A DNA stretch of 64,000 bases from NCBI GenBank assembly GCA_000004985.1, contig GG738929.1; one strand, 5' to 3'. This document shows, in pieces, positions 11,197 to 64,000 of this stretch. The position numbers and the translations under genes were made by a program. This DNA comes from Naegleria gruberi (taxonomy: Eukaryota). Below the pieces are notes generated by a model. The model saw only the letters and a list, made by a program, of their open reading frames with translations. It ran no database searches and was not told where the DNA came from. Numbering within the stretch: position 1 is the stretch's first letter; each line of letters begins with the position of its first letter.

Positions 11197-14100
11197 ATGA
11201 TTAACACAGGGAAGAGTGAGAGTCCTACATTTCGGAAAGATGCTCACTGCCCAGAGAGAAGACATGCAGTAGTAGGCGTTGATCCATTCAACAATAATTT
11301 ACAAACAAAATCTGAAACTTTCTCTTGGCTTCAAAAAGAAAATAACAAGACTGACGATAAATTCCTATTACCAAATAACAGCAGTTCTTCTACTGCAAAT
11401 GATACACATAGACTCTCTTCCGGAGATTTGGTAAATTCAATTACTGTTGAAGATGAAGGAGCAAAAAAAGTTTTGGTTGTAGATGATGATCGGGTAGCTC
11501 GTCAAGTTTTAACCAAGCTCTTGGAACAACTTGGTTTTCAAGGTATGTAATCTTCATTTGAATGTAATATGTTTATCTCTGATTGTATGACATTAATGCA
11601 TGACCTTACAACGCTCATTACATTTATGGTGTCTCTACAAAACGTACATGTAGTGAAAGCTGTCGAGGGAGGTAAACAAGCATTGGAAGTGTTAAGAGAA
11701 GAGGGTAATAATTATCATCTTCTCCTTGTAGATGTACTCATGCCTGATATGGATGGATTGCAACTGCTTAAAATTTTCAGACAAGCCTACTCTGAAGACA
11801 TGCCAATAATTAGTATGTATTTTAATGAATATGTTTTTGTTAACACGTTGGATAATAGTGGTTTCATCAAGTGAGGACCCCGATACAATTAATCAATGTT
11901 TCCAAAGTGGAGCTGAAGACTTTTTACAAAAGCCTGTTCAATTAGAAATTTTGAAAAGAAGAGTTAATATGTGTCTTGAGGACAGACTCAGACGCAGAAA
12001 AGAAAAAGCATATCAAGAAATGCTCCAAAATGAAAGAATCAATAGAAAGAAACTTACACTTCGTGTAAAGGAGCAAGAAAAGGAATTGGAAGAAATTAAG
12101 AATCAAATTAATAATACTGTAGAAACACCAATGCAGGTTGTTATGAAAACCATTGCTGATCTTATGGAAGGAAAGTATTCAATTGAAAATTCTAAGGGAG
12201 CTTTGATTGCTGTCCTTAGGTCACTAGGTTCTAAGGATTTATATAAACCAGCATTTTCCAATTTATTAAGAAAGGGAGAATTGGACGACAATACTAGAAG
12301 ATGGCTCCAAACAGAATTCATGAACGAAGGAGACAATAATGTAAATGGCAACAAATCTAACACACCAATATCTAATGAATCATCACCAACTACCGAAAAA
12401 AATTCACAACAAACTAAGGAGCAATCACAATCTTCATCAGCATCTAATCAACAAGTTTCATTATATCACAAGCAAGTTGATGATATTGTAACCAAAAACA
12501 CTTTACCAGGTGATTTAGGAAGTCATACATTTGATACTTTGAAATACTCACATGATCAATTAATCCAATTCATTGTCCAAATGTTTGAAAACTTGGGATT
12601 AATTGAAACATTCAAAATTCCACCAAAAGAACTTGTTGATTTATTAACAGTCGTAAGAGAATCATACAAACACAACCCATACCACAATTTTACTCATGCT
12701 GTAGATGTAACTCAATTTGCTTACCACCTTCTTCTTGTAGATAGAATTTCACAAATGTTTTCACCAATGGAAAAGTTTGCTCTGATGTTTTCTGCCATAA
12801 TGCACGATGTGGGACATCCTGGAGTTAACAATAACTATTTAATTAATATTAAGGATGAATTGGCTCTCATTTACAATGATGTTAGCGTGTTAGAAAATCA
12901 CCATGCATCACAAGCCTTTTACCTCCTTCTCAAACATAATATTTGCTCCAATCTTTCCAAGGATGAATTCAAAGAGTTCAGAAGACTGGTTATCAGTACA
13001 ATTTTATGTACAGACATGTCTCACCACTTTGAAATTCTCACCAAGTTCCAAACAAGACTTCAAACTGGTACGCTCTCTAAGGAAAGTAAGGAAGATAGAC
13101 TCCAACTGATGGGAGTAATTTTAAAGTGTTCTGACGTCAGTAATGCTCTCAGACCATTTGACGTTTCTGAAAAGTGGTCAAATGTCTTGTTGGAAGAATT
13201 TTTCTTACAGGGAGACAGTGAGAGAGACCGTGGATTACCAATCTCTCCTCTAATGGACAGAAGATCTGTTGACAAACCAAAGTCCCAGCTTAACTTTATT
13301 GATTACATTGCTGCACCACTTTTCAACAATTTAATCACTTATTGCTCATGCTTGAACACAACACTCGGAGAAACTTTGCAAAAAAATAGATCCTTGTGGG
13401 AAGAGAGGGCACAAGCTGCTTCGGGCATGGGAAGTAATCAACAAAAAGAAGATATTAGTAGTACCCATACAACAACAACAACAAAAAATACAATAACTAC
13501 AACAACAACAACAAAAACCTCCACTACAACAACTACAACAAATTCACAAGAAAAACCTGTACTCACTGGATCAATGCCAAGTCATTTCGCTAAAGCCAAA
13601 GGATTTACCATCCTGATTATTGATGATGAAAGTGCTCAATGTGCAAAGAAATTAGAACAACCTTTACTTTCACTTAGTTATACAGTTGTATCAACAACAT
13701 TAGCAAAAACCGAGAGTGAATTAGTCAAGTCAAAAGCAGACATTATTCTTTTAAATTACGATATTGTACAATCAACAGAATTGGTGCAAAAAATTAGATT
13801 GGTATCTCCGATTATACCTATAATTACAATTTCTTCCAATTCTGTACAAACCGATTGGTGCCAACAAAGTTTTGTAAGACCAGTAGACACTACAGCATTG
13901 ATTCACTCTGTTGAACATCATATTGAATTATCATTGGATAGGGTACAACCAATAGATTTGGAAATTGCTCTTGAGCAAACAGGTGGAGATGAGGAATTCT
14001 TGTGGGATATGTTGAATGAACTTATTGGTGCAGGAAGTGAGCAAATCGAGAAAATTAAACAATCAACAAAGACTTTGGATTGGGCATCTATGGAGCTTAA

Positions 14101-14281
14101 TTCTCACTCTCTGAAAGGTTCATCAGCACAGCTTGCTTGCAAACCATTATCGCAAGCTGCTTTATCAGTGGAAACGAGCTCTAAGAATCAAGACTCTGCA
14201 AATCTTGAACAAAAGATTGCTTTAATAGAAAAACGACTCAACGATTTAGCTAACTTTGTACAAAAACATCAGCAACAATGA
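11197..14281 (+). CDS. regA-like: RegA-like response-regulator cAMP phosphodiesterase fused to a C-terminal HPt domain: REC - class I PDE - pseudo-REC - HPt (975 aa, 3 exons)
   Basis: join(11197..11542,11654..11812,11859..14281); introns of 111 and 46 nt with GTATGT donors restore a continuous receiver domain (KKVLVVDDDRVARQVLTKLLEQLGFQ|VKAVEGGKQALEVL...LLLVDVLMPDMDGLQLLKIF...MPII|MVSSSEDPDTINQCFQSGAEDFLQKP). PDE metal-binding motifs YHNFTHAVDV and HDVGHPGVNN. Second receiver-like region FTILIIDDES...ADIILLNYDIV has Asn in place of the phospho-acceptor Asp. C-terminal HPt motif HSLKGSSAQLA. Confidence 0.85.
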
Positions 14282-14296
14282 TAAAATGTAAATTTA

Positions 14297-16339
14297 TTAC
14301 CTTATTTGAATAGTTACATCTTTTTCATAGCGGATAGAATGCTCCAAAAAAAGATGTTTTGTTTTTTCAATGTAGGCAAAGTCGGGCTTAATATTAACTC
14401 TGGAAACATAATTGCAAGCGTCCAACATAACTTCAATTCCATCACAAGTTACTTCTTCACACTCAACAATATTAATCTCTCTCAAATTTTTCAAAATGGA
14501 AACAGCATTCAAAGCCTCATCAGACAATAATGAGCACTGACTGAAGTCAATGACACGCAAATATTTACATCCTTCACATAATATTTCCACAGCATCATCA
14601 TTGAGATTTTCATTTCCACTAACAGAGAGTTCCTCTAACAAGGGAGTTGATTCAGAAAGTACAGTCATGGCTTGATTGATATCATCGACTGATTGAAGAG
14701 TTAAACATGTAACAGATTTTGATGTGAGTGCTTTTCTTAATCCTTGAGATGTATATCTTGCTTTAGATTTGAATCCTTGAATGAGGCCAAGCTTTTTTGG
14801 ACATTTCAAATACTTTCCAATATTTTCCAGAGAAACATCAGTCAACTTTTCCCAACGATTAAGGTTTAAATATTTGAGTGATGGGAATTTTTCCAACAAT
14901 ATTTGTAATCCTTCATCTGTAGCATTATAATTTGATTCACAAATAAAATGTGTAAACTTTTCATTACTAGAAACACTGTCTGCAATAACTTTGAGAACTT
15001 TGTTCGTAATTCTCAGACCCGTAGTATCGAGATGGTATAAATCACTCAAATTAGAAATTTCCTTAAGAGACTCTTCGCTAACTTGCCAGCAATTATCTAA
15101 AATAAGCTTCTTGACTGATTTACATTTCCTCAAAATGGTAGAAAGTGCCATATCATCCAAATTATCACATCGAGTTAAATTTAAATGGGTCAAATTCTTC
15201 AAAGAACCAAGTTTTTTAAATCCATTACTTTCTATGGAGTTCTCATTAAAAAGCTCTAAAGTTTTCAAACTTCCAAATTCTCCAAGATGACTACTCAAGC
15301 TGTCTTTAGAGGAGGAAATAAACTTAACATGTTTCAATGAAATTTTTGTTAAATCACAATCTTCAGACAAATCTTGCAATGATTTAAGGGTAAGGGAAGT
15401 TTCTGCATTTGTAAGTAATGTCCTAAAATGTCGTTCGCTGTTATTTGAAATGAATTTTAACATGGTTGGTGTGATTTTGTCTGATTCGATTTTCACCTTT
15501 CTCAATCTATTTGAAATGGTTTTCGAATCTTTAGGTTGTGCAACTGGTCCATGATAGGTTTTCAAATTTGGTAAAGAAAGTACATTGTTAAATTGCACTT
15601 CTTCTGTTGTAAAGGAATTTCCATCAATTTTCAAAATTTCAAGTTTTGGACAATTCTTAACAATTGAGCTTAAAACAGGGTGTGAAAAATCCTCTTCTTC
15701 AACAACAGCAACTGTTTCCTCCTCCTTCTTTGTTTTCCTCTTCTTTTTTGGTGGATTCTTTTTCACTTTCCTCTTTAAACAATTTCTAATTTCCAATCCA
15801 AGTAATATTGGTCCAAATTGTCGAGTTATTCTAATGATATCCTCTTCAGTGGCAATTTCATCCATGACAAGGTGAATGAAATGACTTTGATTTTCTCCAG
15901 CAGTGCTTAAATGTTGAGGATAATTAGGTTCATGATACCTCTTCCATATAATTTTGTGTACCTTTCCAATGATTTGCTTCTTCTTTTTCAAGGCTCTTTC
16001 TCTCTCTAGAATGTATCGGAGTGAGAGAAGGTAATCCATTGCAAAATCAGAGGCTTGTTTTGTTGCATCGTGTTGTGTTGCTTCCGATTCATCACTAAAG
16101 GCTGAAGCCACGCTTGGAGTGTCCATAATATCACCATTCAATAGAAAATCCTCTTCTTCATCAATGGGATCTCTTTCTTCATGCTCATCATGCTGATTCT
16201 CGGAAGGTGCCTCTAAGTGTTCTTGCTGTTCATCTTGATTTGAAGATAATGGTTCCATTGGACGATCATCCTCTTCATCAAATTCCAGACTTGTTGCCTC
16301 TTCCTGTTGCTCTTCTTCAGCTGATCGCTTCTTCGTCAT
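14297..16339 (-). CDS. Leucine-rich-repeat (RNI/cysteine-containing LRR) protein with acidic N-terminus and basic NLS-like patch (680 aa)
   Basis: ATG-initiated single ORF; about 12 LRRs of the LxxLxLxxCxxITD type; KKNPPKKKRKTKK stretch; stop only 15 nt from the convergent regA-like stop. Confidence 0.7.
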   Translation of the reverse strand: MTKKRSAEEEQQEEATSLEFDEEDDRPMEPLSSNQDEQQEHLEAPSENQHDEHEERDPIDEEEDFLLNGDIMDTPSVASAFSDESEATQHDATKQASDFAMDYLLSLRYILERERALKKKKQIIGKVHKIIWKRYHEPNYPQHLSTAGENQSHFIHLVMDEIATEEDIIRITRQFGPILLGLEIRNCLKRKVKKNPPKKKRKTKKEEETVAVVEEEDFSHPVLSSIVKNCPKLEILKIDGNSFTTEEVQFNNVLSLPNLKTYHGPVAQPKDSKTISNRLRKVKIESDKITPTMLKFISNNSERHFRTLLTNAETSLTLKSLQDLSEDCDLTKISLKHVKFISSSKDSLSSHLGEFGSLKTLELFNENSIESNGFKKLGSLKNLTHLNLTRCDNLDDMALSTILRKCKSVKKLILDNCWQVSEESLKEISNLSDLYHLDTTGLRITNKVLKVIADSVSSNEKFTHFICESNYNATDEGLQILLEKFPSLKYLNLNRWEKLTDVSLENIGKYLKCPKKLGLIQGFKSKARYTSQGLRKALTSKSVTCLTLQSVDDINQAMTVLSESTPLLEELSVSGNENLNDDAVEILCEGCKYLRVIDFSQCSLLSDEALNAVSILKNLREINIVECEEVTCDGIEVMLDACNYVSRVNIKPDFAYIEKTKHLFLEHSIRYEKDVTIQIR

Positions 16340-23200: not shown

Positions 23201-25210
23201 TTACAATAAAGTAAGCAGTAAAACAATGAACATCAGTCCATAAATACTAACACTCAAAGTATTAGATAAATTTCCTTGAGTACTACAATCAATACCAGCC
23301 CAACCATAGAAACATTGACATTCATCCTTAGAGCAAATACCACTCTTACAATTATGAAGTCCACATTTGAGAGTGATGGAAGAAGCTGATGATGGAATGT
23401 CACATGATGAAGTTGAGGAAAGATAACATCTACATTCTCCGTTAAAGCATACACCCCTATTGGCTTTCCAACCACATTCACTATTATAAACAGGTCCTAA
23501 ATTTGTAGTAGCTGGGCAAGAAGTTGGTGAATCATTGAATGTTGATTCAAATGAAGAATTAGATTGAATATATCGCATAGCATCAAGAGTATTGACAATA
23601 CCCCAACCTAAATCATTACCTGGTTCAGTATTTTTGGATGCTGTCATCATGACTGCTTTTCTCATTTGATATGGAGTCCAGGTTGGATTTTTCTGAAGAA
23701 TTAATGCAACACAACCAGCAACAATTGGAGTGGCAAAACTTGTTCCAGAACTTGTTAAATAGTCACTATCTGTATTTGGAGAAACCAAGTATGTTGAGCT
23801 ACCTCTTGCACTAACTTCAGGTTTTGTTCTTCCATCATCGGAAGGTCCTCTACTTGAAAAGTATGAAATTTTTCCATTAACATCCACTGATCCAACTGAG
23901 ATAACATCAAATCCATCCGAAGGAGTTCCGATAGTATTACTTCCACCTGCACCTTCATTTCCAGCAGCTAGCACCATAATTAATCCCTTGTAACGAGAAG
24001 CAATATTGACAACTCTAGTGAGTGGTGAAGTGACACCATTAAATTCCTTCTTTGAATGTGAATACCAATCAGTATATCCAAGTGAGGCACTAACAATATC
24101 TGCTCCCAATCTTTCTCCCCATTCAATAGCTTCAATAAAATTATCCTCTTCTACTTGTGTTTCAGTTCTGACATCTTCAGTTTTAGCTAATAATACTGAA
24201 GCGCCTGGAGCAGGTCCCATAAAATTACCAAGATCATAACCAGCAATAGCAGATAAACATTGTGTACCATGATTAGAAGTTGTAGCTGCTTCTCCACTTT
24301 CGTTATCAGTATTAGTGTCCTTATTTACAAAGTCATATTGTCCAGTAATATGAATTGATTTGAGTGCTTTGTGTTGAAGGTGGAATCCACTGTCACAAAC
24401 AAGAATTGTGATACCAGTTCCATTTAGTTCAGGATACATATTTCTTGTAGCCACAACATTCACTTGATTTAATTGGTTGAAAGCCACTCCATAACTAGAA
24501 TCATCAGCTACATGTCTTGTATTAACAACCTTTTGATTTCTTTCCTCTAAGTTTGATCTTTTGAAAGTGGCAACTCTTTCAATTCTATCTACAAATGCTA
24601 ATTTTTGAATCTTTTCAATTTGTTCTTGTGTTACATCAGAAACTGTAATGGCATTCAACCAATTACTACGTGCTCCAATTTTTTGATCTTGTCTTAACAT
24701 ATTTACAATCTTTTGTACGTATTCTTCTACAATAGGAACATCATGAATTGAATAGAGTGATAATTCCTCACCACTAACATCTCTCTTCAAGGAAATTGAT
24801 TCTTGAACAACTTTACGTCTTCTTGCAAGTGCCTTCTCGCTGATTGGAACACTTGTAGGAAAGTGTTTTTCCAAGCTTTCCGAAGCTAAACTTTTAAGTT
24901 TTGTTATTCTTCCATCAATGATCGAAGGAAGATGCAAAGACGATCGTGAATTCTTCTCATCAATTCCCTTATTATTAAAATATATCCAAATCTTCATCGA
25001 TGAAGGTAATGTTGATGAAGGTGTATTACTTGAATTTACTCCTCCAACCAATAATACAAAAGTTGTTGCAACAATCATCATGCTGACCACAACCATCATC
25101 ATTGAACTTTTATATTGTTTCTGCTGTTGTTGACAGGAAGACTTTGTATTCATCATCATCTTCCAAGTATTCTTGTTCGATCTTGGCAAGGCAAATGATG
25201 TGGAGAACAT
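23201..25210 (-). CDS. Subtilisin-like serine protease (peptidase S8) with C-terminal Cys-rich EGF-like modules and hydrophobic anchor (669 aa)
   Basis: Catalytic-triad motifs VCDSGF (Asp), HGTQC (His), GTSFATPIVAG (Ser); N-terminal signal/anchor; C-terminus CxxxxC-rich then SIYGLMFIVLLLTLL. Confidence 0.85.
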   Translation of the reverse strand: MFSTSFALPRSNKNTWKMMMNTKSSCQQQQKQYKSSMMMVVVSMMIVATTFVLLVGGVNSSNTPSSTLPSSMKIWIYFNNKGIDEKNSRSSLHLPSIIDGRITKLKSLASESLEKHFPTSVPISEKALARRRKVVQESISLKRDVSGEELSLYSIHDVPIVEEYVQKIVNMLRQDQKIGARSNWLNAITVSDVTQEQIEKIQKLAFVDRIERVATFKRSNLEERNQKVVNTRHVADDSSYGVAFNQLNQVNVVATRNMYPELNGTGITILVCDSGFHLQHKALKSIHITGQYDFVNKDTNTDNESGEAATTSNHGTQCLSAIAGYDLGNFMGPAPGASVLLAKTEDVRTETQVEEDNFIEAIEWGERLGADIVSASLGYTDWYSHSKKEFNGVTSPLTRVVNIASRYKGLIMVLAAGNEGAGGSNTIGTPSDGFDVISVGSVDVNGKISYFSSRGPSDDGRTKPEVSARGSSTYLVSPNTDSDYLTSSGTSFATPIVAGCVALILQKNPTWTPYQMRKAVMMTASKNTEPGNDLGWGIVNTLDAMRYIQSNSSFESTFNDSPTSCPATTNLGPVYNSECGWKANRGVCFNGECRCYLSSTSSCDIPSSASSITLKCGLHNCKSGICSKDECQCFYGWAGIDCSTQGNLSNTLSVSIYGLMFIVLLLTLL

Positions 25211-25601: not shown

Positions 25602-27200
25602 ATGTGTTCACTTCCTGAGGATGAAATTCTTCATGTTATTAACAAGGCCAGTGAAGTAGGATGTTGTATCCGATGTGGTTTATGTTATTTGGATTTATTC
25701 AAGATGAATATTGCCATGTATTCAAAGAATGAAAAGGAACTTGTTGAAACTCTTCTTCCTAATCATCATCAACAAGTTTGTTTACTTTCATCATCGAGAT
25801 GTAAGATTTGTTTTGGTGCTTTTCAAGATGAATATCTTCACGGAAGACTTCCTAATGAAATGGAAAAAGTTTATCATGAATATGATATTGAATATTTGAG
25901 CGAATTCCATGTTTCATTAACATTTTCAAATCATTTTCATATTAGAGAACATTGTTTTAAATATTTACTTGCAAAACATGTGGAATCGGAGCAAGTTAAA
26001 AAGATTTTACAATCTTCACAACCACCTCTTGACAGAAAGAGGCTTTTGAAAACTACACTTTCCGATATATTTGAAAAGTCAATGAAGGCTAAAGGTCATG
26101 AATTAAAAGCTAATCCACAAACTGCACCACTTATGATTGAAGTTAAATTTAATGATGATGTTATTATGAATGCAAATTCTAAGGAGGAAGTTGTGGAAGA
26201 GAATTTATCTCCATTAAAGAAAAAGAGAAAAAAGAACAAGATTGATAGAAGAGAAAATTCAAATCTTCAAAGTGTTTTGAGATTAAAATCTTTGGAAGAA
26301 CTTGATACAATTATACAGTCAGAAATACCAGCTGAATGGAATAATGATTTGAGTGATTTTTCATCTGAAACATCTGTGAAACTTGATGAAAAATTTATCA
26401 AAGTGTCTGGTACTCATTCAGTCATCTATATTTCAGGATATTATAGAAAATTAGAAAGAGGACTTCCACAATCTCCGTGGGTAATGAGAGGTTCAAAGGA
26501 GGATGAACAAAATACTAGAAGTGTTGATACATATATTGGAGGACCTTTTATGGAATATACCAAGGCAGACTCTTACAAATTTGACTCTTCTGGAAGAGAA
26601 GATAAGAACGTGAGAATGTTGGGTAATGGTAGACCTTTTGTTTTTGCAATTCATAATCCAAGAAGAAGTCACTTTACACTTGAACAAGTCAAGGAAATTG
26701 AGAACACAATCAACCAAAGAGCTAATGGATCTATTGAAGTACATACTATCCAAGTTCACTTTAATAATCTTGTATGCCAAAAGATGAAGGAAGGGGCAGA
26801 AGAAAAGAGAAAAAATTACAGATGTGTTGTTTGGTGCGAAGCTGCGTTGACGAGTGATACTGATCCATCACTCAAGGAGAAAGTTACCAATTATCTTGAA
26901 TCTATTAAGGACCTGGATATTGGACAAAAGACACCACTCAGAGTACTCCACAGAAGAGCTCTCCACACTAGAAAAAAGATTATTCACTCAATTAAGTGTA
27001 CAGAATTTATCAATTCTCATGCTATGGTTTTGGATCTTTGTACAAGTGCAGGTACTTATGTAAAGGAATTTATTCATGGCGATTTTGGTAGAACTGAACC
27101 ATCATTTGGTACCTTGCTTGCCAAGCTATTTGAAAGATCCTTACCTTTTGATTCTCAAATTTTGCAACTTGATGTTATGGAGATTGAAATTTCATTATAA
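25602..27200 (+). CDS. PUS10: tRNA pseudouridine synthase Pus10 (532 aa)
   Basis: N-terminal CxxC...CxxC zinc-ribbon (GCCIRCGLCYL...CKICFG); catalytic-domain block REDKNVRMLGNGRPFVFAIHNPRR and C-terminal HTRKKIIHSIKC...FIHGDFGRTEPS typical of Pus10. Confidence 0.75.
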   Translation: MCSLPEDEILHVINKASEVGCCIRCGLCYLDLFKMNIAMYSKNEKELVETLLPNHHQQVCLLSSSRCKICFGAFQDEYLHGRLPNEMEKVYHEYDIEYLSEFHVSLTFSNHFHIREHCFKYLLAKHVESEQVKKILQSSQPPLDRKRLLKTTLSDIFEKSMKAKGHELKANPQTAPLMIEVKFNDDVIMNANSKEEVVEENLSPLKKKRKKNKIDRRENSNLQSVLRLKSLEELDTIIQSEIPAEWNNDLSDFSSETSVKLDEKFIKVSGTHSVIYISGYYRKLERGLPQSPWVMRGSKEDEQNTRSVDTYIGGPFMEYTKADSYKFDSSGREDKNVRMLGNGRPFVFAIHNPRRSHFTLEQVKEIENTINQRANGSIEVHTIQVHFNNLVCQKMKEGAEEKRKNYRCVVWCEAALTSDTDPSLKEKVTNYLESIKDLDIGQKTPLRVLHRRALHTRKKIIHSIKCTEFINSHAMVLDLCTSAGTYVKEFIHGDFGRTEPSFGTLLAKLFERSLPFDSQILQLDVMEIEISL

Positions 27201-40006: not shown

Positions 40007-43000
40007 TTAGAGCAATTTTCTCAGCTTTTCCTTAAGAGATTCACCAACAGCATCACTGTTATTTTCCAAGAAGGAAAGCAAACCATCACAAACTGAACCT
40101 AAATTACCTGAAGAACATAATGAAAGAATATCTTGCTTGACCTTTTCACCTCTCAATGTAGCAATGGCTTGTGTAACAGTTTCCTTATTATCTTCAATCC
40201 AAGACAAGAATTCTCTATCGTTAGTCCAAACTTGTTCATTATTGATGACCTTTTGTCTGAGGATTTCTCTCTTGATAGATAACTTGTTTGATTGAGCATC
40301 TACACATTCACTTAATTCCTTCAACAAATTGAATTCGAGAATCTTTCTCTTCAATCTCCAGTAGAAGTAAGTTCTAGCAGTCTTCCAAGAAATGATTTCG
40401 GTAATAACACCCTTAGCCTTCATTCTACCTGGAGTATCATGGAGATCAGCAAAACATTCAGCTACTTGAGTATAAATTGGAATCAACTTTTCAACTCTCT
40501 TACCCATCTTGACCTTGATTTCATCCTTTTCCTTCAAAGAAATGTCTGATCTTCCCAATTCCTTGGCAAGGTTAATATATTCAGCATCCAAACGTTGAAT
40601 AGTAGCAACAATTTCTTGCTTTCTGTACTTAATTTCAACAATACCAGAAGCTTCCAAAATACCACCCTTGGACTTATCATCAGCAAACATTTCCATAACA
40701 TCATTATTGATCATTGGATCAACAACAACCCAAGCACCACCTCTCAATTCACCATTTGGTGGAATGTAAACAAAAACTGGTTGCTTGTAATTGGTCAAAG
40801 CATCAACAATGTAAGAACCAAACTTGAGGATTTCATCAAACATATCTCTTTGACCACCAGAGAAACCTCTCCAGTTAGCAAAGATCATGAGTGGCAATTG
40901 TTCTCCCTTGTTGAAATCATTGATTGCTTGAGCAGTCTTGAATGCAGAATCTGGATACCAGACTTGGCCAGATTTTTGAACTACTCTTTCTCTAGAGTTA
41001 CTATCAGCAGGATCAGCAGGAATAATTTGTTCATAGGTCTTTGTGTCAACAGCAATAACACCCATTGGAATACCACCAAGTCTAGCACGAGCAACAATAA
41101 TATTCTTTGCCCAACCAGTCAAAGTTTCAAAGAATGAGTTCTTATCAAAGAAACCACTCAACCATGTTGATTCTCCATTTTCACCTTCAACAGTCTTACC
41201 AACCAACATTTCTCTAAAGTCATAGTGGCTACCTTCAACTGGGAGGTATTGAATTTGACGTTCAGGATCATCAAGAGTCTTCAAGATTGGAAGTGCAGAA
41301 CCAACTGACTTTGGAACATATGACAACCACTTGAGAGCATCCTTGATAGCAAGATAGTCATCCTTAGCAATCAAGTGAGTGACACCATTAGGATTCATGA
41401 TTTGAATACCACCCAATTGCAAATTACTGGTATAAACTTCTCTAGACAAAACCTTATTCAAAGCACCAGCACCAGTGAGCAAGATAGGAGCTTTTCTATT
41501 TTGAATAATTCTTTGACCAAGACGATTAACATAGGCACCAATACCAACACTTCTTGCAGCAATATAATTCATAGTGAAAACTTCTTCATAGGCACGAGAA
41601 GTTTCACCAGCAATCATACCAGATCCTCTCAAATTTTCGACACCAATACCATTTTCCTTACCAATAATGTCAATAATCTTCCATCTCTTTTCTCCGTTAA
41701 CTTCAATTTCAACAGCATTGACAGAGTTGGTCTTTTGAAGTTTTTCGTAATCATTTGGAGTGAGGTAAAGATATTTGAAGCCCTTAGTGCTATCATTTGG
41801 TTCGTTCCATTCAATCTTGAATAATTCTCTGACTTCATCAGCCAAACCAATTCTAGCACCAGAGTTGGCAGCAATGTAGAATCTTGGAATCTTCAACTTT
41901 CTAGCCATTTCACTAGCCAATTGGAATACTTCATCTTCAATAACACCAAAAGAACCAGATTGATATGTGATATCGTTGGCAATTAAAATCATATCTCTGC
42001 CATCCTTAGCTTCTGGAGTGAACAAAGTAACCTTCCAAACAACCATACCACATGTATTCTTACCTATAGCATTCTTGACTGGATTTTCAATCAAGAATTT
42101 GCCAGTTGTATCGAGAATATATTCAGTAAGACTGATGAAAGTGCTTGGAATGTCTTCCTTAGTCAAATCGTTATGTTCTTTCCACATGGAACGAACAACT
42201 CTTTCGAACAAGTATGGGAAATCATAGACATAGGATGTATCATTGTTGTGAGCAAGAACTCTCTTTTGATCAACAGCTTGGAGAATAGGGTGAGGAATAT
42301 TAACATCCAAACCTTCCAATGGCTTCTTTTCACCAACAACAGTCTTGTAAACGGTTCTACCAGTAGTTTGATCCTTTTCTTCTCTGTAAACGTCCAATGT
42401 AAGATTGTAACCAGTGTCATCAAGAGCAATGAATCTAAAGGTTTGTGGTTGAGAGGTTCGGGAGAATTTAGCAGTGAATCTAACTTCAACTTCACTAACT
42501 CTCAACTTCCACAATCTCTTACCATAAACCTTTTGGAATCTTTCAATAATTTCACCTACCATATCTGCCTTGACAACAACTTCAGGTAAGAAATTGACGA
42601 AAATGTGATTAGCATAACTAGTTGGGTAATTCTTATCAGCCATAGCAATTTCCAAAGCATTGATTGAGGCAACAACATATCTTTCAAGTTCTGAAATTTG
42701 CAATTCTTCAGGATTTTCTTCAGTGAAGATATCACCTTGCAATACCAAAGTACGAACGAAGAATCTCTTATTCAAGAAATCATATCTATTCAAACCAAGC
42801 TCCTTCTTCTTTTGACCATAGAAAACGTGAACAGATGGATCCTTACATGGGTATGGAGTAATGTTATAATTAGATAATTTCTTAAGGAAAAGTTGGAAGG
42901 CAAGTGTAGGTTCAATATGTCTGTACATTGGATCTTCGTCATAGTTGAATCTTTGTCTGAAAGTAAAGTAGAATGGCAATTTATCTTGAACTTCAACGAC

Positions 43001-46000
43001 AACAGTAACTCTCTTAATTTCGTTATATTGGAGAGATTCGCTGTGCTTCTTCAAAAGGTTAGTAAGGGATGGGAGAAGTTCAACATCATTTGGTGTTGGT
43101 CCGTGAGCTCTCAACAAAATCTTCAAAACATTAGTATTGTCAGCATCGTCGTTATTTTCAAAGATCTTCATAACATCTGGAAGGTGAGCATCAATATCAC
43201 TGACAGAATCAAAGATAGCCAAAACACCAAAACCAATGTTATCTTCAGTCTCTGAGAGACTGCTCAAACAGTCCATAGAAATAGAACCAACAATACCATC
43301 AGACTTTAATGAACCTGAAGTGGACTTTTCAGTATTCATAAAACTAAATTCAACAGTCTTGAACTTTGGTTGGGAGGTAACTCTTGAAATATCAATATCA
43401 AAAGTACAGTATGCCTTTCTGATGTAGACTTCAGCAGCCAAGTTAGCAATTCTTTCATCTGGATCAGAGAAGAATTCAAGAAGAATGTCGAAACTATAGT
43501 TAGACTTGACAATTAATTCCTTCAAACAAGCAAGCTTTTGTTGATTATCAACAGCTTCAAGTCCATCCTTAAAGTATCCTTCCATTTCATCCTTCATTCT
43601 TTGCTTAGAAGGCAATCTACTTGAGGTGAGGATGTGTTTAGCAGCAACAGCAACATCACTGAATTCTGGAGCAACAAATGAAGCCAATTCATCCAAAAGT
43701 GGAGTTGATTCCTTAACCATGTCGAGTTCTTCAATAATTTCTAAAAGAGAACGAATAACCTTATTCTTACTGCTAAGTCTAAAGTGGGAGAGACCAATTT
43801 GGTAAGTCTTGTTGAGGTTTTCAGAGTGTTTTTGTCTCAATTCAAACCAAACAGCTTCTCTTCTCTTACCACCAGTGGTATCAAAGATCTTTTCAGTTTG
43901 AATATATTCTTCAAGTAATTTGGCGAGAGTGGAGAAAGCATGTTGCTTGTATCCATTATTGAAGAGTTCCAAAAGTTCAAAAACTGGTTTGGCAGCGATG
44001 AGGAATTCTTCCTTCTTAGCTCCTTCAAGACCACTTTCAAAGTTCTTGAAAATAGAAGTAATTTCCTTAACTAAATCCTCATTGTAAACATCTTGGGTGT
44101 GATCATTATCATCCTTGCAACAATATTCGTCGTATTCAATCTTTCTCTTTTGCAAAAGGTTATTGACTTCTCTAACCAATGATACTGGTAAGAATTTTCT
44201 CAAAACTGAAAGCTTTTCAATCATTTCATGGATAATAACATTTCTATCACCGAGTTTTCTGAGTGACAACATGGTTTCTGAGAGTTTGTCATTGAAAATG
44301 AAAGCAGGATAATCATAACCAGCCAACAAGTTTTGAACAGTTTCCAAAGCAGAAGAAACAACTCTATTTGGAGGAAGTCTTGCATTAACCTTAGCAGCAG
44401 GAGGGAATTGGCCTTCGAATGGAAGTGATCTCTTAACTTGGGATTTATCATCAAGATCGATTATAGCAATGATATCTCCTTGGTTAACACCAGTACCATC
44501 AACAAGACAGTGATTAACTCTACCTGGAAGTGGAGCATAAACAGTGACAATCATCTTCATGACTTCCAATTCAGCAACTGGAGTATTTGGTTTAACATGA
44601 GCACCATTTTCAACCAAATACTTCATGAATTTACCACTCAATGTTGATCTCAATTGAGATGGATCGAATTCCTTAGTAAACATACAAACCTTACCGTCAA
44701 GTGTAAGTTTGAGGCCCGAAGGTTCTTCACTGGCATAAGAGACGTGTGATCCATTGTCAACAACAATGAGTAATCCAGAATCTCTCAATTCAGACAATTC
44801 AGCTTCTATTGTAGATCCATTCAAAGCCAAAGTATATTTGTTTGGTCCACTTCTAACTCCGTCAACTTGATATTTAATATTTTCATAAATAAGTTCAATA
44901 GAGTAGTGTACATCAACATTGTCAAATGAAGGAACCTGTCCTCTTTCAACAGCCAAAATCCAATTCTTGGCTCTCTCGGAAACCATTCTGTGGAGAGTAT
45001 GGACTGCACCACAAGTAACTACTAAAAGTGTATCAGGCTTTTCCAATTTAATTTTCTTTGAAATAAGATTATCCAACCATGATGTTGTATAATTGTTATT
45101 AACATAATCATCAAACTTCAAAAGTGATTGTAAATATTCAGCTGTTGTTCTGATTTCGCCTCTGATGGCTAATTCAGAAAGTGTTGAAAGCATAGTCTTT
45201 CTTGCTTCTTCTCTTGTTTCACCCTTTGTGAAAATGTGACCGAATTGAGAATCAGAGAAAGCGTGGATGGCACCTTGGGAACGAATTGAGAAATATCCCC
45301 AAACGTTTGGATTTGTTCTAAAGTTAAGTTCAACAACAGAACCACAAGTTGGTTGGAACCCACTTTCTGGATTTTCAGCTGTAACACGGCAAGCAATAAC
45401 GTGACCAACTGGAGGTTGTCTCCTAGCAGCATCGTTAACATCAATTTGTGGTTCAACAGTGTAGAGATCCTTCAATTGAACACCAAAGAATCTTCTAATA
45501 TCTGGAATACGATTTAATGATATTCCCATAGCAATTTGAAGTTGGATAGATGGAATATTGGTGAGTGTAATCCATTCTGTGACTGGATGTTCAACTTGCA
45601 ATCTAGGATTCAATTCCAAAAAGTAAACATGTTCAGTAGCAGGTTCATAAAGATATTCAACTGTACCAGCACCACTATAATTAACACTACGAGCAAGTGT
45701 GACAGCTGCAGCTTCCATTTTATCAATAACGTGCTTTGGAGCAACTGTAACTGGACCTTCTTCAATAATCTTTTGATGTCTTCTTTGAACGGAACAATCT
45801 CTTGAATATAATGCGAGAGCATTACCATGTTTATCAGCAACAACTTGAACTTCCAAGTGTCTACTTTCACTAGAGAGTTTCATCAAGAAAATAGGAGATC
45901 CCGGCACTTCATTTTTAACTTGTGAAAATCCCAATTTCAATTCAATATCATTTGCTACTTTACGAATACCTTTACCACCACCACCTTCAGAAGCTTTAAT

Positions 46001-46663
46001 CATTATTGGATATCCAATCTTATTTGCACATTTCAAAGCTTCTGATTCAGAAGTGATACAACACTTTAAATAAATGTCTTCAGGAATTGGTAAACCACTC
46101 TTTGTAATATCGTAGTGAACCTCGGAACCAGACCATGGAATACAAGGAACACCAGCTGCTTGAGCCAAAATTGTGGAAGAAATCTTGTCTCCCAAAGCTT
46201 CCATTGGTACACTGTCTGGACCAATAAAAGCAATTTGTCGTTTAGTTTGTGAAAGTGAAAATGGAAGTTCTGGATTTTCACTAGCGTGTCCCCAACCTGG
46301 CCAAACTGCATCACAACAAAATTGTTCAGCAATATCTACTATTAATTTAACATTGCTGTAATTGTTATAATTCGATTCACCTGGTACTTTGACTAATTCA
46401 TCAGCCAATCTAACATATTCGGCATTGGCTTGGATATCTTCAGGTGTAGCCATTACTACGAATTTAATTTCATCTGATTTACCAAAAACTTCATTACACC
46501 ATTTTCTCATTGAACGAATTCCTTTAACTGCGGCAATACCATTGTTTGCTATCAGTATCTTTTTGATTATCTTGTTGCCACCCATAAAACTAACATATTC
46601 TTCTACACTTGCGAAAATGCCATGATTAGATTGTGTAGGAATAACTGGACTATCTGTTTCCAT
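40007..46663 (-). CDS. ACC: Acetyl-CoA carboxylase, multidomain eukaryotic type (2218 aa, single exon)
   Basis: Biotin carboxylase (ATP-grasp, ...GYPIMIKASEGGGGKGIRKV...), biotin-carboxyl-carrier motif EVMKM, central domain and carboxyltransferase domain, all collinear with eukaryotic ACC1. Confidence 0.97.
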   Translation of the reverse strand: METDSPVIPTQSNHGIFASVEEYVSFMGGNKIIKKILIANNGIAAVKGIRSMRKWCNEVFGKSDEIKFVVMATPEDIQANAEYVRLADELVKVPGESNYNNYSNVKLIVDIAEQFCCDAVWPGWGHASENPELPFSLSQTKRQIAFIGPDSVPMEALGDKISSTILAQAAGVPCIPWSGSEVHYDITKSGLPIPEDIYLKCCITSESEALKCANKIGYPIMIKASEGGGGKGIRKVANDIELKLGFSQVKNEVPGSPIFLMKLSSESRHLEVQVVADKHGNALALYSRDCSVQRRHQKIIEEGPVTVAPKHVIDKMEAAAVTLARSVNYSGAGTVEYLYEPATEHVYFLELNPRLQVEHPVTEWITLTNIPSIQLQIAMGISLNRIPDIRRFFGVQLKDLYTVEPQIDVNDAARRQPPVGHVIACRVTAENPESGFQPTCGSVVELNFRTNPNVWGYFSIRSQGAIHAFSDSQFGHIFTKGETREEARKTMLSTLSELAIRGEIRTTAEYLQSLLKFDDYVNNNYTTSWLDNLISKKIKLEKPDTLLVVTCGAVHTLHRMVSERAKNWILAVERGQVPSFDNVDVHYSIELIYENIKYQVDGVRSGPNKYTLALNGSTIEAELSELRDSGLLIVVDNGSHVSYASEEPSGLKLTLDGKVCMFTKEFDPSQLRSTLSGKFMKYLVENGAHVKPNTPVAELEVMKMIVTVYAPLPGRVNHCLVDGTGVNQGDIIAIIDLDDKSQVKRSLPFEGQFPPAAKVNARLPPNRVVSSALETVQNLLAGYDYPAFIFNDKLSETMLSLRKLGDRNVIIHEMIEKLSVLRKFLPVSLVREVNNLLQKRKIEYDEYCCKDDNDHTQDVYNEDLVKEITSIFKNFESGLEGAKKEEFLIAAKPVFELLELFNNGYKQHAFSTLAKLLEEYIQTEKIFDTTGGKRREAVWFELRQKHSENLNKTYQIGLSHFRLSSKNKVIRSLLEIIEELDMVKESTPLLDELASFVAPEFSDVAVAAKHILTSSRLPSKQRMKDEMEGYFKDGLEAVDNQQKLACLKELIVKSNYSFDILLEFFSDPDERIANLAAEVYIRKAYCTFDIDISRVTSQPKFKTVEFSFMNTEKSTSGSLKSDGIVGSISMDCLSSLSETEDNIGFGVLAIFDSVSDIDAHLPDVMKIFENNDDADNTNVLKILLRAHGPTPNDVELLPSLTNLLKKHSESLQYNEIKRVTVVVEVQDKLPFYFTFRQRFNYDEDPMYRHIEPTLAFQLFLKKLSNYNITPYPCKDPSVHVFYGQKKKELGLNRYDFLNKRFFVRTLVLQGDIFTEENPEELQISELERYVVASINALEIAMADKNYPTSYANHIFVNFLPEVVVKADMVGEIIERFQKVYGKRLWKLRVSEVEVRFTAKFSRTSQPQTFRFIALDDTGYNLTLDVYREEKDQTTGRTVYKTVVGEKKPLEGLDVNIPHPILQAVDQKRVLAHNNDTSYVYDFPYLFERVVRSMWKEHNDLTKEDIPSTFISLTEYILDTTGKFLIENPVKNAIGKNTCGMVVWKVTLFTPEAKDGRDMILIANDITYQSGSFGVIEDEVFQLASEMARKLKIPRFYIAANSGARIGLADEVRELFKIEWNEPNDSTKGFKYLYLTPNDYEKLQKTNSVNAVEIEVNGEKRWKIIDIIGKENGIGVENLRGSGMIAGETSRAYEEVFTMNYIAARSVGIGAYVNRLGQRIIQNRKAPILLTGAGALNKVLSREVYTSNLQLGGIQIMNPNGVTHLIAKDDYLAIKDALKWLSYVPKSVGSALPILKTLDDPERQIQYLPVEGSHYDFREMLVGKTVEGENGESTWLSGFFDKNSFFETLTGWAKNIIVARARLGGIPMGVIAVDTKTYEQIIPADPADSNSRERVVQKSGQVWYPDSAFKTAQAINDFNKGEQLPLMIFANWRGFSGGQRDMFDEILKFGSYIVDALTNYKQPVFVYIPPNGELRGGAWVVVDPMINNDVMEMFADDKSKGGILEASGIVEIKYRKQEIVATIQRLDAEYINLAKELGRSDISLKEKDEIKVKMGKRVEKLIPIYTQVAECFADLHDTPGRMKAKGVITEIISWKTARTYFYWRLKRKILEFNLLKELSECVDAQSNKLSIKREILRQKVINNEQVWTNDREFLSWIEDNKETVTQAIATLRGEKVKQDILSLCSSGNLGSVCDGLLSFLENNSDAVGESLKEKLRKLL

Positions 46664-47514: not shown

Positions 47515-49248
47515 TTATCCATTGTAATCATCATCTTCATAGCTGTTTGATTTGTGTTTTGGAATAAAAACAAAATCGTCACCAGGCTTTGGAAGACCTG
47601 CAAGCTCTGTTAATGTGATCCAATCTTTGCCATTTGATGAGGCCATTAATGTTTCCAATTCATTTCTTCCTCTGTAGAGTGGTGGTCTTTCATTTAGTTT
47701 GATTGGCAAACGTTCCAAAAGTCCAACTGGTACATATCTACACAAGAATGAAAGCCATTCCAATAAAAATCTACGAGTCTTTGAAATACCAATCTCATCT
47801 GCACCATAATGGTCAAGTCCATATTTAACAAAGTTCTTTAACATCTCCAATCTTTCACTTGCTGAAATGTCAATAGTATGTTGTTGCTCGATTTCTCTAA
47901 ATAACCATGGTTTGATAAGGGCACCACGACCAATCATTAAGGAATCAACCTTATCAATATGTTCATACCAATCTTGATAATTATAAATATCACCATTACC
48001 AACCATATAAACTTTTCTATTTGCCTTTTCTGAGTAGGTTTGAACAACCTTGGAGCAATCATAAATGTATTGATAATCTGCTTCCTTTGTATATCTCATT
48101 TCTCTTGATCTTCCATGAAGAGTCAACCCATCAACACCACATTCACAAAGGTCTGCCATAAGTTTGTGAGCAAAGTTCTTTCCAGTCTTGCTACCAGTTC
48201 TCATTTTAACAGTAATAGGAATTGAAAGAATTTCCTTCATTCCTCTAACAATACCAACAAGTTTTGTTCTCTTTTCCATCATACCAGCACCCATACCAGA
48301 AGAGCAAAGAGTATTAACTGGACATCCACAATTAACATCTACAAAATCAATATGAGGGAATTGTTCATCAATAAGTTGTGCAACTCTTGTCATGGTAGCA
48401 GCATCCTTGCCAGCCAATTGAACTCCAAAGATTTTTTCAGATTCATGTCTTCTCAATAATGAAATATCTCCTCTTTCTCCTTTCAAAATAGAATGACTGA
48501 GGGCCATTTCACCAATTGTAATATCACATCCATAATCTTTACAAATACGTCTGAATGGTAAATTACCAACAGTTGTCAAAGGAGCAAGATATGTTTTTCT
48601 TGTAAAATCCACTTTCTTGATCTCACTTGGGTGATATTTAGTTTCCTTATAAGTTAAAATGTCATATTTTTCTTCCTCTGGAACGAGTTCTCCTCTTTCA
48701 ATCATTTTTTGTCTAACTATTTGTTGTTGTCTTTGTCTGAATAAAGCTTCCTCACTCTTTGATCGTTCTTGAGCTTCCTTTTTACCATATTCTTCGACAT
48801 GTTTTGTTACTTCCTCAGCCTTTTCAAAATTGTAAGTCTTCTTTCTCAATTGTTTAATTACATCAAATTCAACAAAATTGAATTCTCCTTGAGGTCTAGC
48901 AATATGTGTATTTTCATCCGCATTATTTGAATCTGCATTCTTTTCCTTCTTCTCCTTTTTCATTGCATCCCTGGTTCTATTGTGGAAACTCTTGGCTTTT
49001 TTAGAATTCTTATTGTCACCTTCATGTTTTCTTTTCTTTTCCGAATCATTATTTTCAGTTGATGATGGAATATCATCAGATTTTGGCTTTTCCATAATAA
49101 TATATTCAAGTTTTACTGGTGCTTCTCCCTTTCTTCTAACATATTCTTGTTGTATACTATTATTATCCGATGATGATTCAACGGTTGTTGATGAAGGTTG
49201 TTGTTCAGTTGTATTTTCAACTGGTGTTGCTTCTTGTTGTTCAGACAT
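47515..49248 (-). CDS. DUS3: tRNA-dihydrouridine synthase, Dus3-like (577 aa)
   Basis: TIM-barrel Dus motifs LAPLTTVGNLPFRRICKDYGCDITIGEMA...VDVNCGCP and Dus3-type C-terminus NERPPLYRGRNELETLMASSNGKDWITLTELAGLPKP...FIPKHKSNSYE; N-terminal region is Lys/Glu-rich without obvious CCCH fingers. Confidence 0.85.
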   Translation of the reverse strand: MSEQQEATPVENTTEQQPSSTTVESSSDNNSIQQEYVRRKGEAPVKLEYIIMEKPKSDDIPSSTENNDSEKKRKHEGDNKNSKKAKSFHNRTRDAMKKEKKEKNADSNNADENTHIARPQGEFNFVEFDVIKQLRKKTYNFEKAEEVTKHVEEYGKKEAQERSKSEEALFRQRQQQIVRQKMIERGELVPEEEKYDILTYKETKYHPSEIKKVDFTRKTYLAPLTTVGNLPFRRICKDYGCDITIGEMALSHSILKGERGDISLLRRHESEKIFGVQLAGKDAATMTRVAQLIDEQFPHIDFVDVNCGCPVNTLCSSGMGAGMMEKRTKLVGIVRGMKEILSIPITVKMRTGSKTGKNFAHKLMADLCECGVDGLTLHGRSREMRYTKEADYQYIYDCSKVVQTYSEKANRKVYMVGNGDIYNYQDWYEHIDKVDSLMIGRGALIKPWLFREIEQQHTIDISASERLEMLKNFVKYGLDHYGADEIGISKTRRFLLEWLSFLCRYVPVGLLERLPIKLNERPPLYRGRNELETLMASSNGKDWITLTELAGLPKPGDDFVFIPKHKSNSYEDDDYNG

Positions 49249-62152: not shown

Positions 62153-64000
62153 TTATTTTTCCAAGATGGTTTTCACAACATTTCTAATTTGTGTTTGAGA
62201 TATTGGTTTTAGACACACAAGATCCATTCCTGCACGTTTGCACAAGCTTTCTCCATCACTATCTCCAGTCGCACCAATTAAAATACAAGAAGTAGCAGGT
62301 TTCTTTTCTGCTTCAAATAGTCTTATTTTTTCGGCACATTCCAATCCTGACATTACATCCATGTGTACATCAAGAACAATGGCATCAAATTTGTTAGGGG
62401 TATCAAAATTCTCAATATAAGCATCAAGAGCCTCTTTACCATTTGAAACACCCTTAGTTTCAATCATGAGCTTGTGTGGTTCATTCTTGACCTGCGAGAG
62501 ATGATTTTCTAGCTCACTATTTCCAGTAAGACCACCAAATATCTTGAGCATAATATTCTTATTAATAACATTATCATCAGCTACAAGTATTCTTAATTTA
62601 AGTTGTTTCTCTGATGGTCCACTATCAGATGATCCTGAGGGAGACGATTGGGGTGATGTTTCAGATGTTTGCGGATCTTTGGAAATTGCTGGCAAGTTTG
62701 GCTCTGAAATTAATGCCTTCTTAGGGAATTGGAATTTTTCAAAATCATTCTTCTCCGTGCTTGAAAAGGAAACAGTGGAATTCTTCATTGTTAATATTTG
62801 TTGAATCATATATTGGAAAGAAAAAAGTGTTACAGGTTTTCTAATTGATAAATCAAACATAGACTTGTTGGATTTAGGAAGATTTGTATCCTTTTTGATA
62901 AAACTTAGGAATCTTTTAGGTTCAAATCTATCAAACCATACAATTAATTTAGGTTGGATGACTTGATTATTTGTAGCAAATTTAGCATTATGTGACTCTA
63001 TTAATACTTTCAGTTTAGAAATGGTTGAATGAATTCTTTCAATCTCTACTGGAGAATAAATAAGAGTACTATTTCTTCTACCAGCATTGTTTGATTGATT
63101 TGCAGCCTTAGATTCAGCATTATGGGAGGAAACATGAGCTGCAGTGAAAAGAGCATTCTCGCTCTTTGGTAGATTGTCAGGAAGGAAACAAGCGTCATCC
63201 AAAATAATGAAAGAAATAGGTTTCTTAACTAACCAATCATTAGGATTAGATGATGATCTGTGCAAGAACTCCTCAGTGAATTGCTCTATCTTGTCAGCAT
63301 TTACAAATACGTTTTCAATATTTTCCATTGTTGCAACCTTTTCATCAAACACTTCTCTTAAATAATTGGAGAGGATGTTTCTCACTTTTGATTCTTTGTA
63401 AAGTACGAGACAAATATTGTTGCCATAATTTTTGGAAAGCTTTTCCTTTACCTCCATAATCTTACTTTCATCTGTAAGAGGTAATCTCTTATCAGCTCTG
63501 TCAATAATCTTGTCATAGTCCTCTCCTCTTGCAGCCTTTTGAAAAACAACTGTAAACCAGAAATTACTTCCACTGGAACCATTACTCTTACAACCAATGT
63601 CACCATTCATGAGGGTTGTAAGGTTTTTACAAATACTGAGACCAAGACCACTTCCTTCATACTCCTTATCCTTTTTCAATCTTGAAAATACTTTGAAAAG
63701 ATCTTTTTGTTTTTCTTGAGGAATACCGATACCAGTATCACAAACTACTACAAATACTTTCACTGTGGTTTCAGTTTCTTCTGGAACATCAACCAAGACA
63801 GAAACCGATCCTGTATGAGTAAACTTGATAGCATTACCCATCAAGTTTGTTAGAATTTGTTGGAATTTGTGAACGTCACCTCTAACAACCAATGGTACTC
63901 TATGTTTAGATCCACGTTTTACATCAATTTCAAGTGCTACATCAATTCCCTTCTTAAAGGCAGTAACACTGTTAATAGAAATAATTTCTTCAACAGAATA
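62153..64000 (-). CDS. Hybrid histidine kinase, C-terminal part (HATPase_c + receiver); N-terminal H-box region lies beyond the window end
   Basis: Frame open to the window edge; N/G1/G2 ATP-lid boxes QQILTNLMGNAIKFT, VCDTGIGIPQE, GSGLGLSICKNL; a linker of about 250 aa; C-terminal receiver LRILVADDNVINKNIML...FDAIVLDVHMDVMSGLE...ILIGATGD...CLKP. Confidence 0.8.
   Translation of the reverse strand, partial: YSVEEIISINSVTAFKKGIDVALEIDVKRGSKHRVPLVVRGDVHKFQQILTNLMGNAIKFTHTGSVSVLVDVPEETETTVKVFVVVCDTGIGIPQEKQKDLFKVFSRLKKDKEYEGSGLGLSICKNLTTLMNGDIGCKSNGSSGSNFWFTVVFQKAARGEDYDKIIDRADKRLPLTDESKIMEVKEKLSKNYGNNICLVLYKESKVRNILSNYLREVFDEKVATMENIENVFVNADKIEQFTEEFLHRSSSNPNDWLVKKPISFIILDDACFLPDNLPKSENALFTAAHVSSHNAESKAANQSNNAGRRNSTLIYSPVEIERIHSTISKLKVLIESHNAKFATNNQVIQPKLIVWFDRFEPKRFLSFIKKDTNLPKSNKSMFDLSIRKPVTLFSFQYMIQQILTMKNSTVSFSSTEKNDFEKFQFPKKALISEPNLPAISKDPQTSETSPQSSPSGSSDSGPSEKQLKLRILVADDNVINKNIMLKIFGGLTGNSELENHLSQVKNEPHKLMIETKGVSNGKEALDAYIENFDTPNKFDAIVLDVHMDVMSGLECAEKIRLFEAEKKPATSCILIGATGDSDGESLCKRAGMDLVCLKPISQTQIRNVVKTILEK

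Follow-up and report, generated by a model that had tools for sequence, protein, structure and literature searches.

A RegA-type cAMP phosphodiesterase of Naegleria gruberi with a fused histidine phosphotransfer domain

Whether one gene of Naegleria gruberi unites a RegA-type cyclic AMP (cAMP) phosphodiesterase with a histidine phosphotransfer (HPt) domain is the question raised by positions 11197-14281 (plus strand) of a 64,000-nucleotide (nt) stretch of contig GG738929.1 (NCBI GenBank assembly GCA_000004985.1), called the window in the following. In Dictyostelium, hybrid histidine kinases pass the phosphoryl group to His65 of RdeA and from there to Asp212 of RegA, which activates cAMP hydrolysis, and this flow is reversible (PMC11988041). 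RegA is a central brake on encystation and sporulation of amoebae driven by cAMP and protein kinase A, and for pathogenic amoebae it has been suggested as a target through which cyst formation might be disturbed (PMC3906536). A preliminary description, made from the nucleotide sequence without database searches, had claimed for the locus a single gene encoding a receiver (REC), a class I phosphodiesterase (PDE), a pseudo-receiver and an HPt domain. This claim was borne out by a reading frame that is continuous from PDE to HPt and by orthologues of five other named species, in each of which a single protein carries both PDE and HPt; in four of these species the order of the domains is also the same. 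A RegA with a built-in HPt is a real and conserved gene fusion, and its complete form in N. gruberi has the order REC1, helical linker, class I PDE, Thr-rich tether, pseudo-receiver and HPt.

The gene is surrounded by AT-rich eukaryotic DNA with 33.7% G+C. Splicing out two introns leads to a coding sequence of 2928 nt and a predicted protein of 975 amino acids (aa). Both short GTATGT introns had been recognised in the preliminary description, and the N-terminal receiver obtained after their removal is indeed complete (Table 1). The open reading frame (ORF) 11825-14281 is uninterrupted, without an in-frame stop between PDE and HPt, thus the linkage of PDE, second receiver-like region and HPt does not depend on splicing. 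An independent contig of a second N. gruberi-like strain presented the identical contiguity, with 11 substitutions (nine synonymous, two not) and without an indel in the coding exons. The sole indel, 3 nt in intron 2, is consistent with non-coding sequence. For an analysis of selection on the tail, the differences between the strains were too few (11 in total, none in the tail).

A Pfam scan of the 975-aa translation placed PF00072, PF00233 and PF01627 all above their thresholds, while no Pfam match to HisKA or HATPase was obtained in the protein. The motifs quoted in the preliminary description, YHNFTHAVDV (aa 443), HDVGHPGVNN (aa 484), IILLNYD (aa 797) and HSLKGSSAQLA (aa 918), are all present on the plus strand. 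REC1 has retained all signature residues (D96, D97, D142, S171, F190, K193), and the metal-binding residues of the PDE (H444, H448, H484, D485, H488) are invariant in 24 sequences. By sequence, the protein matches the RegA type: an N-terminal receiver with the full catalytic set is combined with a class I PDE carrying the metal-binding His and Asp residues. The N. gruberi gene has been treated as a RegA homologue before (PMC3906536). Its product would be a cytosolic, two-component-regulated cAMP phosphodiesterase.

An AlphaFold model of the N. fowleri orthologue has a linker helix at residues 195-253 after REC1 and low confidence at residues 249-373. A strongly conserved segment at 11966-12300 (aa ~205-320; ETPMQVVMKT...YKGALIA.L.SLGS.DLYKPAFS...W) has no Pfam model and was modelled at low confidence. 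It is common to HPt-bearing and HPt-less REC-PDE proteins, including that of the amoebozoan Vexillifera, and may couple the receiver to the catalytic domain. In the N. fowleri model, the stretch equivalent to the Thr-rich linker is disordered; this linker is likely a flexible tether or spacer.

The second receiver-like region stayed below the Pfam threshold for Response_reg (16.1 bits, cut-off 30.2). The preliminary description had noted an asparagine in place of the phospho-acceptor, and this was found as Asn801, within IILLNYD, while the acidic pair D757/D758 is retained. An AlphaFold model of the tail (aa 730-975, alignment of 17 sequences) reached a predicted local distance difference test score (pLDDT) of 93.3 and a predicted template modelling score (pTM) of 0.88. 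The first half of the modelled tail has the succession β1-α1-β2-α2-β3-α3-β4-β5-α5, a receiver fold without helix α4. The domain is a pseudo-receiver, having kept the fold and lost the acceptor Asp, with a score under the Pfam cut-off. With Asn801, Arg842 and no α4, it is predicted to be incapable of phosphorylation. The high pTM of the two-domain construct suggests that pseudo-receiver and HPt form one rigid unit. Among the 17 orthologues, the full catalytic set of the second receiver is present only in the environmental sequence P0016, which gave a strong Pfam match; in the remaining 16, either the acceptor Asp or the pair that binds the metal is lost. An Asn in place of the acceptor is common to the Naegleria/Willaertia clade, Acrasis and the environmental sequence P0009. 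The second receiver of P0016 (L003 144-3263) is canonical (ED, Asp, Thr, Lys), so that, judged from these residues, this protein could run an Asp-His-Asp relay within one polypeptide; its state is possibly ancestral.

The second half of the modelled tail is a four-helix bundle with the phosphotransfer histidine on the helix at model residues 181-197. The HPt assignment of the preliminary description thus holds in fold and in score: Pfam Hpt matches aa 885-967 with 30.2 bits in the whole protein and 32.3 bits in the tail alone, above the cut-off of 24.6. The motif HSLKGSSAQLA starts at this histidine, His918. All 17 orthologue tails match Pfam Hpt at E<=1e-3, and the His, Lys (H+3) and Gly (H+4) are invariant in all sequences compared, from Heterolobosea, a jakobid and many environmental sources. 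The single N. gruberi HPt sequence gave only weak matches to solved structures (E 0.03), and the family profile and structure matched Ypd1, AHP1/2 and the Chaetomium HPt. In sequence, the domain is not nearer to eukaryotic HPt domains than to those of bacteria.

The REC-PDE-HPt architecture was found in N. fowleri (1005 aa), N. lovaniensis (1022 aa), Willaertia (909 aa) and Acrasis kona, further in one EukProt sequence and at least ten environmental clusters. The jakobid Andalucia godoyi has REC-PDE-HPt with a coiled-coil replacing the second receiver, hence no pseudo-receiver. Over the full protein, the identity is 66-68% to the orthologues of N. fowleri and N. lovaniensis and 60% to that of Willaertia. 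By domain, N. gruberi and N. fowleri share 96% in REC1, 83% in the PDE, 77% in the HPt, 60% in the pseudo-receiver and 32% in the Thr-rich linker. The high identities of HPt and pseudo-receiver compared to the linker argue that the tail is under selection as protein. One environmental 3-kb contig ends in A10, 37 nt past the stop codon; it was not counted as proof of an mRNA, as the same sample gives multi-gene genomic contigs.

In a neighbour-joining tree of the linker and PDE region, the proteins with an HPt cluster together (bootstrap 61). This cluster adjoins a clade of HPt-less REC-PDE paralogues of Willaertia (P0021) and Acrasis (P0020) with a bootstrap of 100; a further HPt-less REC-PDE paralogue is P0019. 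The next outgroup is the REC + PDE protein of Vexillifera, the only amoebozoan in a set that did not include the Dictyostelium RegA. For the three Naegleria species no HPt-less REC-PDE paralogue was retrieved, and Naegleria may rely on the HPt-bearing RegA alone.

When the profile of pseudo-receiver and HPt was aligned with a HisKA-HATPase-REC-HPt kinase, it proved collinear with the REC-HPt tail of this kinase along 204 columns (hhalign probability 99%, E 4.9e-18). Searched exhaustively with the profile, 1.84 billion representatives yielded 5607 proteins at E<=1e-30. Most of the best 150 of these 5607 matches have both domains as one stretch, typically near the C-terminus of a protein of 800-1700 aa. 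Four top matches from outside the family were checked, and all proved to be kinases that combine HisKA, HATPase, REC and HPt, three of them also with PAS; the two of these four with a named source belong to Phycisphaeraceae and SAR324 bacteria. Among solved structures, the receiver part matched best to kinase-attached receivers, e.g., 8phn, RpfC. On these alignments, the best interpretation of the tail is a REC-HPt cassette of the type found in unorthodox kinases that was joined to a RegA-like regulator and whose receiver degenerated later. Two short proteins of uncultured relatives, P0234 (260 aa) and P0240 (277 aa), consist of pseudo-receiver and HPt only, and such separate genes were seen only in uncultured relatives. 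A tree built from the tail module places both within the RegA-fused group, the enclosing clade having a bootstrap of 100, and from this placement they look like secondary fissions or duplications. They give the fusion a true unfused counterpart. The Rosetta-stone argument of the preliminary description therefore stands, as separate forms exist both in these genes and in the RdeA and RegA of Dictyostelium.

Table 1. Features of the N. gruberi regA locus (window positions) and the two stand-alone tail genes of uncultured relatives (positions on their own contigs)
Feature	Position	Strand	Description
Exon 1	11197..11542	+	aa 1-115 and first base of codon 116; poorly conserved N-terminus, start of REC1
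Intron 1	11543..11653	+	111 nt, GTATGT...TAG; its removal yields a contiguous receiver domain
Exon 2	11654..11812	+	mid-REC1; codon of phospho-acceptor Asp142 at 11731-11733
Intron 2	11813..11858	+	46 nt, GTATGT...TAG
Exon 3	11859..14281	+	end of REC1, helical linker, PDE, Thr-rich linker, pseudo-receiver, HPt; stop codon 14279-14281
REC1 receiver	11470..11965 (both introns included)	+	aa 92-204; PF00072 Response_reg, E 7.3e-32, 110.3 bits, profile positions 1-110 of 111
Linker after REC1	11966..12679	+	aa 205-442; long helix, conserved ETPMQVVMKT...YKGALIA.L.SLGS.DLYKPAFS segment, low-complexity stretch
Class I cyclic-nucleotide phosphodiesterase catalytic domain	12680..13363	+	aa 443-670; PF00233 PDEase_I, E 1.5e-86, 290.4 bits
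Thr-rich linker	13421..13588	+	about aa 690-745; poorly conserved; 32% identity to N. fowleri vs 83% for PDE
Pseudo-receiver	13604..13939	+	aa 751-862; D757, D758, Asn801 (codon 13754-13756), S827, Arg842 for Lys, no α4
Segment removed as intron by the public model	13766..13797	+	32 nt, GT..AG; frame shift, stop at 13912-13914
HPt domain	13967..14278	+	aa 872-975; His918 (codon 14105-14107), Lys921 (H+3), Gly922 (H+4)
P0234	L005 4625-5407		downstream of a peptidase S49 gene; no PDE within 4.6 kb
P0240	L008 6001-6834		on a 29-kb contig among unrelated genes

How the fused HPt may serve the PDE was deduced from the domain identities, the conserved catalytic residues, the predicted folds and the RdeA-RegA relay of Dictyostelium; we infer every step of the following. 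The receiver of a hybrid histidine kinase would give its phosphoryl group to His918 of the C-terminal HPt. The HPt, mobile on the disordered tether, would hand it to Asp142 of REC1, either within its own chain or across to a partner. Phosphorylated REC1 would activate the PDE, and the cAMP level would fall. With kinases working as phosphatases, the phosphate could flow back by the same route. The pseudo-receiver, which is predicted to pack rigidly against the HPt, would most likely be a structural or docking adaptor. We consider this course, from the kinase receiver over His918 and Asp142 to PDE activation, reasonably probable by analogy to the Dictyostelium relay. The full-length AlphaFold model of the N. 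fowleri orthologue presents confident domains between disordered linkers (pTM 0.43) and gives its three structured blocks no fixed arrangement; the lack of a fixed placement of the tail relative to REC1 in this model fits a tethered, mobile HPt.

Several points weigh against this reading. The 975-aa N. gruberi protein is a prediction from genomic sequence, and the public gene model predicts a truncated protein. Willaertia and Acrasis possess the HPt-less REC-PDE paralogue in addition. The stand-alone pseudo-receiver-HPt genes show that the module can work separately and that the fusion is not obligatory; the existence of the module as a free-standing protein argues against an obligatorily intramolecular mechanism. 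The full-length model predicts no docking of REC1 and HPt, and, judged by the sequence, the transfer may run in either direction and in cis or in trans. A separate RdeA/Ypd1-like HPt may also exist in Naegleria: word-indexed searches with the HPt and tail profiles gave only short environmental or bacterial proteins, a negative result that is uninformative because common eukaryotic HPt proteins, with about 27-34 bits for the HPt profile, would fall short of the database-wide threshold.

A relay of opposite or branching course was considered unlikely. Here a kinase would phosphorylate Asp142 of REC1 directly and the phosphoryl group would move to His918; the HPt would then pass it back, feed other response regulators or act as a phosphate sink, making RegA a relay hub and not only a terminal output. 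Unorthodox kinases normally transfer from REC to HPt, the tail is homologous to their REC-HPt unit, and the canonical second receiver of P0016 makes an internal step from REC to HPt plausible in that protein. Stand-alone copies of the module exist, the flow in the Dictyostelium relay can be reversed, and further targets of RdeA are probable (PMC11988041). However, the receiver adjacent to the HPt is dead in Naegleria (Asn801), and the Ser/Phe switch pair of REC1 is typical of terminal, allosteric receivers (criteria in PMC9981736). Furthermore, only few non-kinase receiver proteins are reported for N. gruberi (4), so that downstream clients would be scarce.

Quite improbable is a tail without phosphotransfer, in which pseudo-receiver and HPt would serve the PDE only for docking, dimerisation or autoinhibition. 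The degenerate state of the neighbouring receiver and the prediction of both domains as one rigid unit are in line with such a role, and non-phosphorylatable accessory receiver-like domains with missing helices are known from RcsC and ShkA (PMC9981736). Yet His, Lys and Gly of the HPt are invariant across the heterolobosean, jakobid and environmental sequences, while the surroundings diverge to about 30% identity. This pattern fits a retained phosphotransfer chemistry.

The locus is already annotated as N. gruberi "regA" (XP_002669246.1 / D2W310, 842 aa). The first 804 aa of our spliced product are identical to XP_002669246.1, then the public model continues with 38 unrelated, unconserved residues and a stop. 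The truncation results from the removal of the segment 13766-13797 as an intron, which shifts the frame; half of the pseudo-receiver and the entire HPt are lost. That this model is right, with the segment always spliced, or that both forms are made by regulated splicing, in each case yielding an 842-aa RegA without HPt, is hardly credible, although the segment has GT..AG ends and is used by the reference annotation. With 32 nt it is shorter than both confirmed introns (46 and 111 nt), and it starts with GTACAA, whereas those start with GTATGT. Its removal leads only into the unconserved residues and the stop. Read without this splice, the protein is conserved at each residue of the stretch in four orthologues (N. 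fowleri, N. lovaniensis, Willaertia magna and the environmental P0005) and runs on into a domain 77% identical to that of N. fowleri. Judged by this conservation, the segment is a mispredicted intron and the public model needs correcting to 975 aa. A survey of 2014 described the Naegleria RegA as a receiver followed by a PDE, as in other RegAs (PMC3906536), presumably due to the truncated model. A separation of PDE and HPt on two transcripts or a misjoined assembly, conceivable as the N. gruberi reading comes from genomic sequence and not from transcripts, is practically negligible in view of the missing in-frame stop, the contiguous, indel-free coding exons on the independent contig of the second strain, and the same order in independent assemblies of at least six named species and on single-ORF environmental contigs of 3 kb.

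In N. gruberi, 24 histidine kinases have been described, none of them reported with a fused HPt (PMC6324907). That these kinases would need an HPt speaks for the relay through His918. A rather doubtful extension of the RegA relay is that its HPt is the only one in Naegleria, that the about 24 kinases converge on one polypeptide which collects the phosphoryl signal and turns it into cAMP breakdown, and that the ancestral form, as in P0016, had a complete Asp-His-Asp relay in one protein. If it were the sole HPt, all histidine-kinase signalling in the genus, N. fowleri included, would have to pass through this one domain. Taken together with the ancestral one-protein relay, it would represent the most compact eukaryotic phosphorelay known and a single control point for encystation and differentiation in Naegleria, again including N. 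fowleri.

All four domain types and the relay logic were known before, and the architecture is already in public databases through the automatic annotation of orthologues. It is apparently undiscussed: the literature searched has no mention of an HPt on RegA or of any Naegleria HPt protein. The conserved HPt on heterolobosean and jakobid RegA extends the logic of the RdeA-to-RegA relay from Amoebozoa to Discoba, for which the gene fusion is an independent line of evidence. The N. gruberi reference model used by comparative work, e.g., the survey of 2014, is corrected. The protein also offers a natural single-chain system for studies of HPt-to-receiver transfer and of the role of the pseudo-receiver.

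Other genes of the window surround the locus. A 680-aa leucine-rich-repeat gene (F-box/LRR-like; 14297-16339, minus strand) converges on regA with 15 nt between the stop codons, so the 3' untranslated regions of both genes must overlap. Housekeeping neighbours are a subtilase (23201-25210, minus strand), the Pus10 pseudouridine synthase (25602-27200, plus strand), a dihydrouridine synthase (47515-49248, minus strand) and an acetyl-CoA carboxylase (40007-46663, minus strand) encoded in a single ORF of 2218 aa. The hybrid histidine kinase to which the preliminary description had pointed at a distance of 48 kb is real (HATPase_c and Response_reg, 62153-63892, minus strand, the N-terminal part lying beyond the window end). 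Its proximity was rejected as a functional link, since it carries no weight in a eukaryotic genome that lacks operons and contains about 24 kinases of this kind, and nothing ties this kinase specifically to regA.

Compared to known systems, the Naegleria protein shares with the RegA of Dictyostelium discoideum the N-terminal receiver followed by the class I PDE, and by analogy the same logic, phosphorylation of the Asp leading to cAMP breakdown, is expected; a cAMP-specific hydrolysis that this phosphorylation activates is known for Dictyostelium only. While the described RegA stops after the PDE, the Naegleria protein runs about 300 residues further through Thr-rich tether, pseudo-receiver and HPt. 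Its HPt resembles RdeA, Ypd1, the plant AHPs and the Chaetomium HPt in the four-helix bundle and the His, Lys (H+3) and Gly (H+4), and it is assumed to mediate likewise between kinase receivers and RegA. Where RdeA, Ypd1 and the AHPs are small proteins of their own, the Naegleria HPt shares a chain with its presumed target and has the pseudo-receiver in front. In RcsD, an ABL-type domain lies directly N-terminal to the HPt and helps to bind the partner regulator. The pseudo-receiver is similar to the ABL domain of RcsC/RcsD and to Rec1 of ShkA in having a receiver fold with missing helices and no phosphorylation site (PMC9981736 for the general point); a partner-binding function would be an analogy only and implies no sequence relationship. 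The unorthodox hybrid kinases of the ArcB/BarA/TorS/RpfC type possess a REC-HPt tail that is homologous and collinear over both domains. In contrast to these kinases, the Naegleria protein has neither HisKA nor HATPase, the receiver of the tail has lost its acceptor Asp, and the module resides on a response regulator with an enzymatic output.

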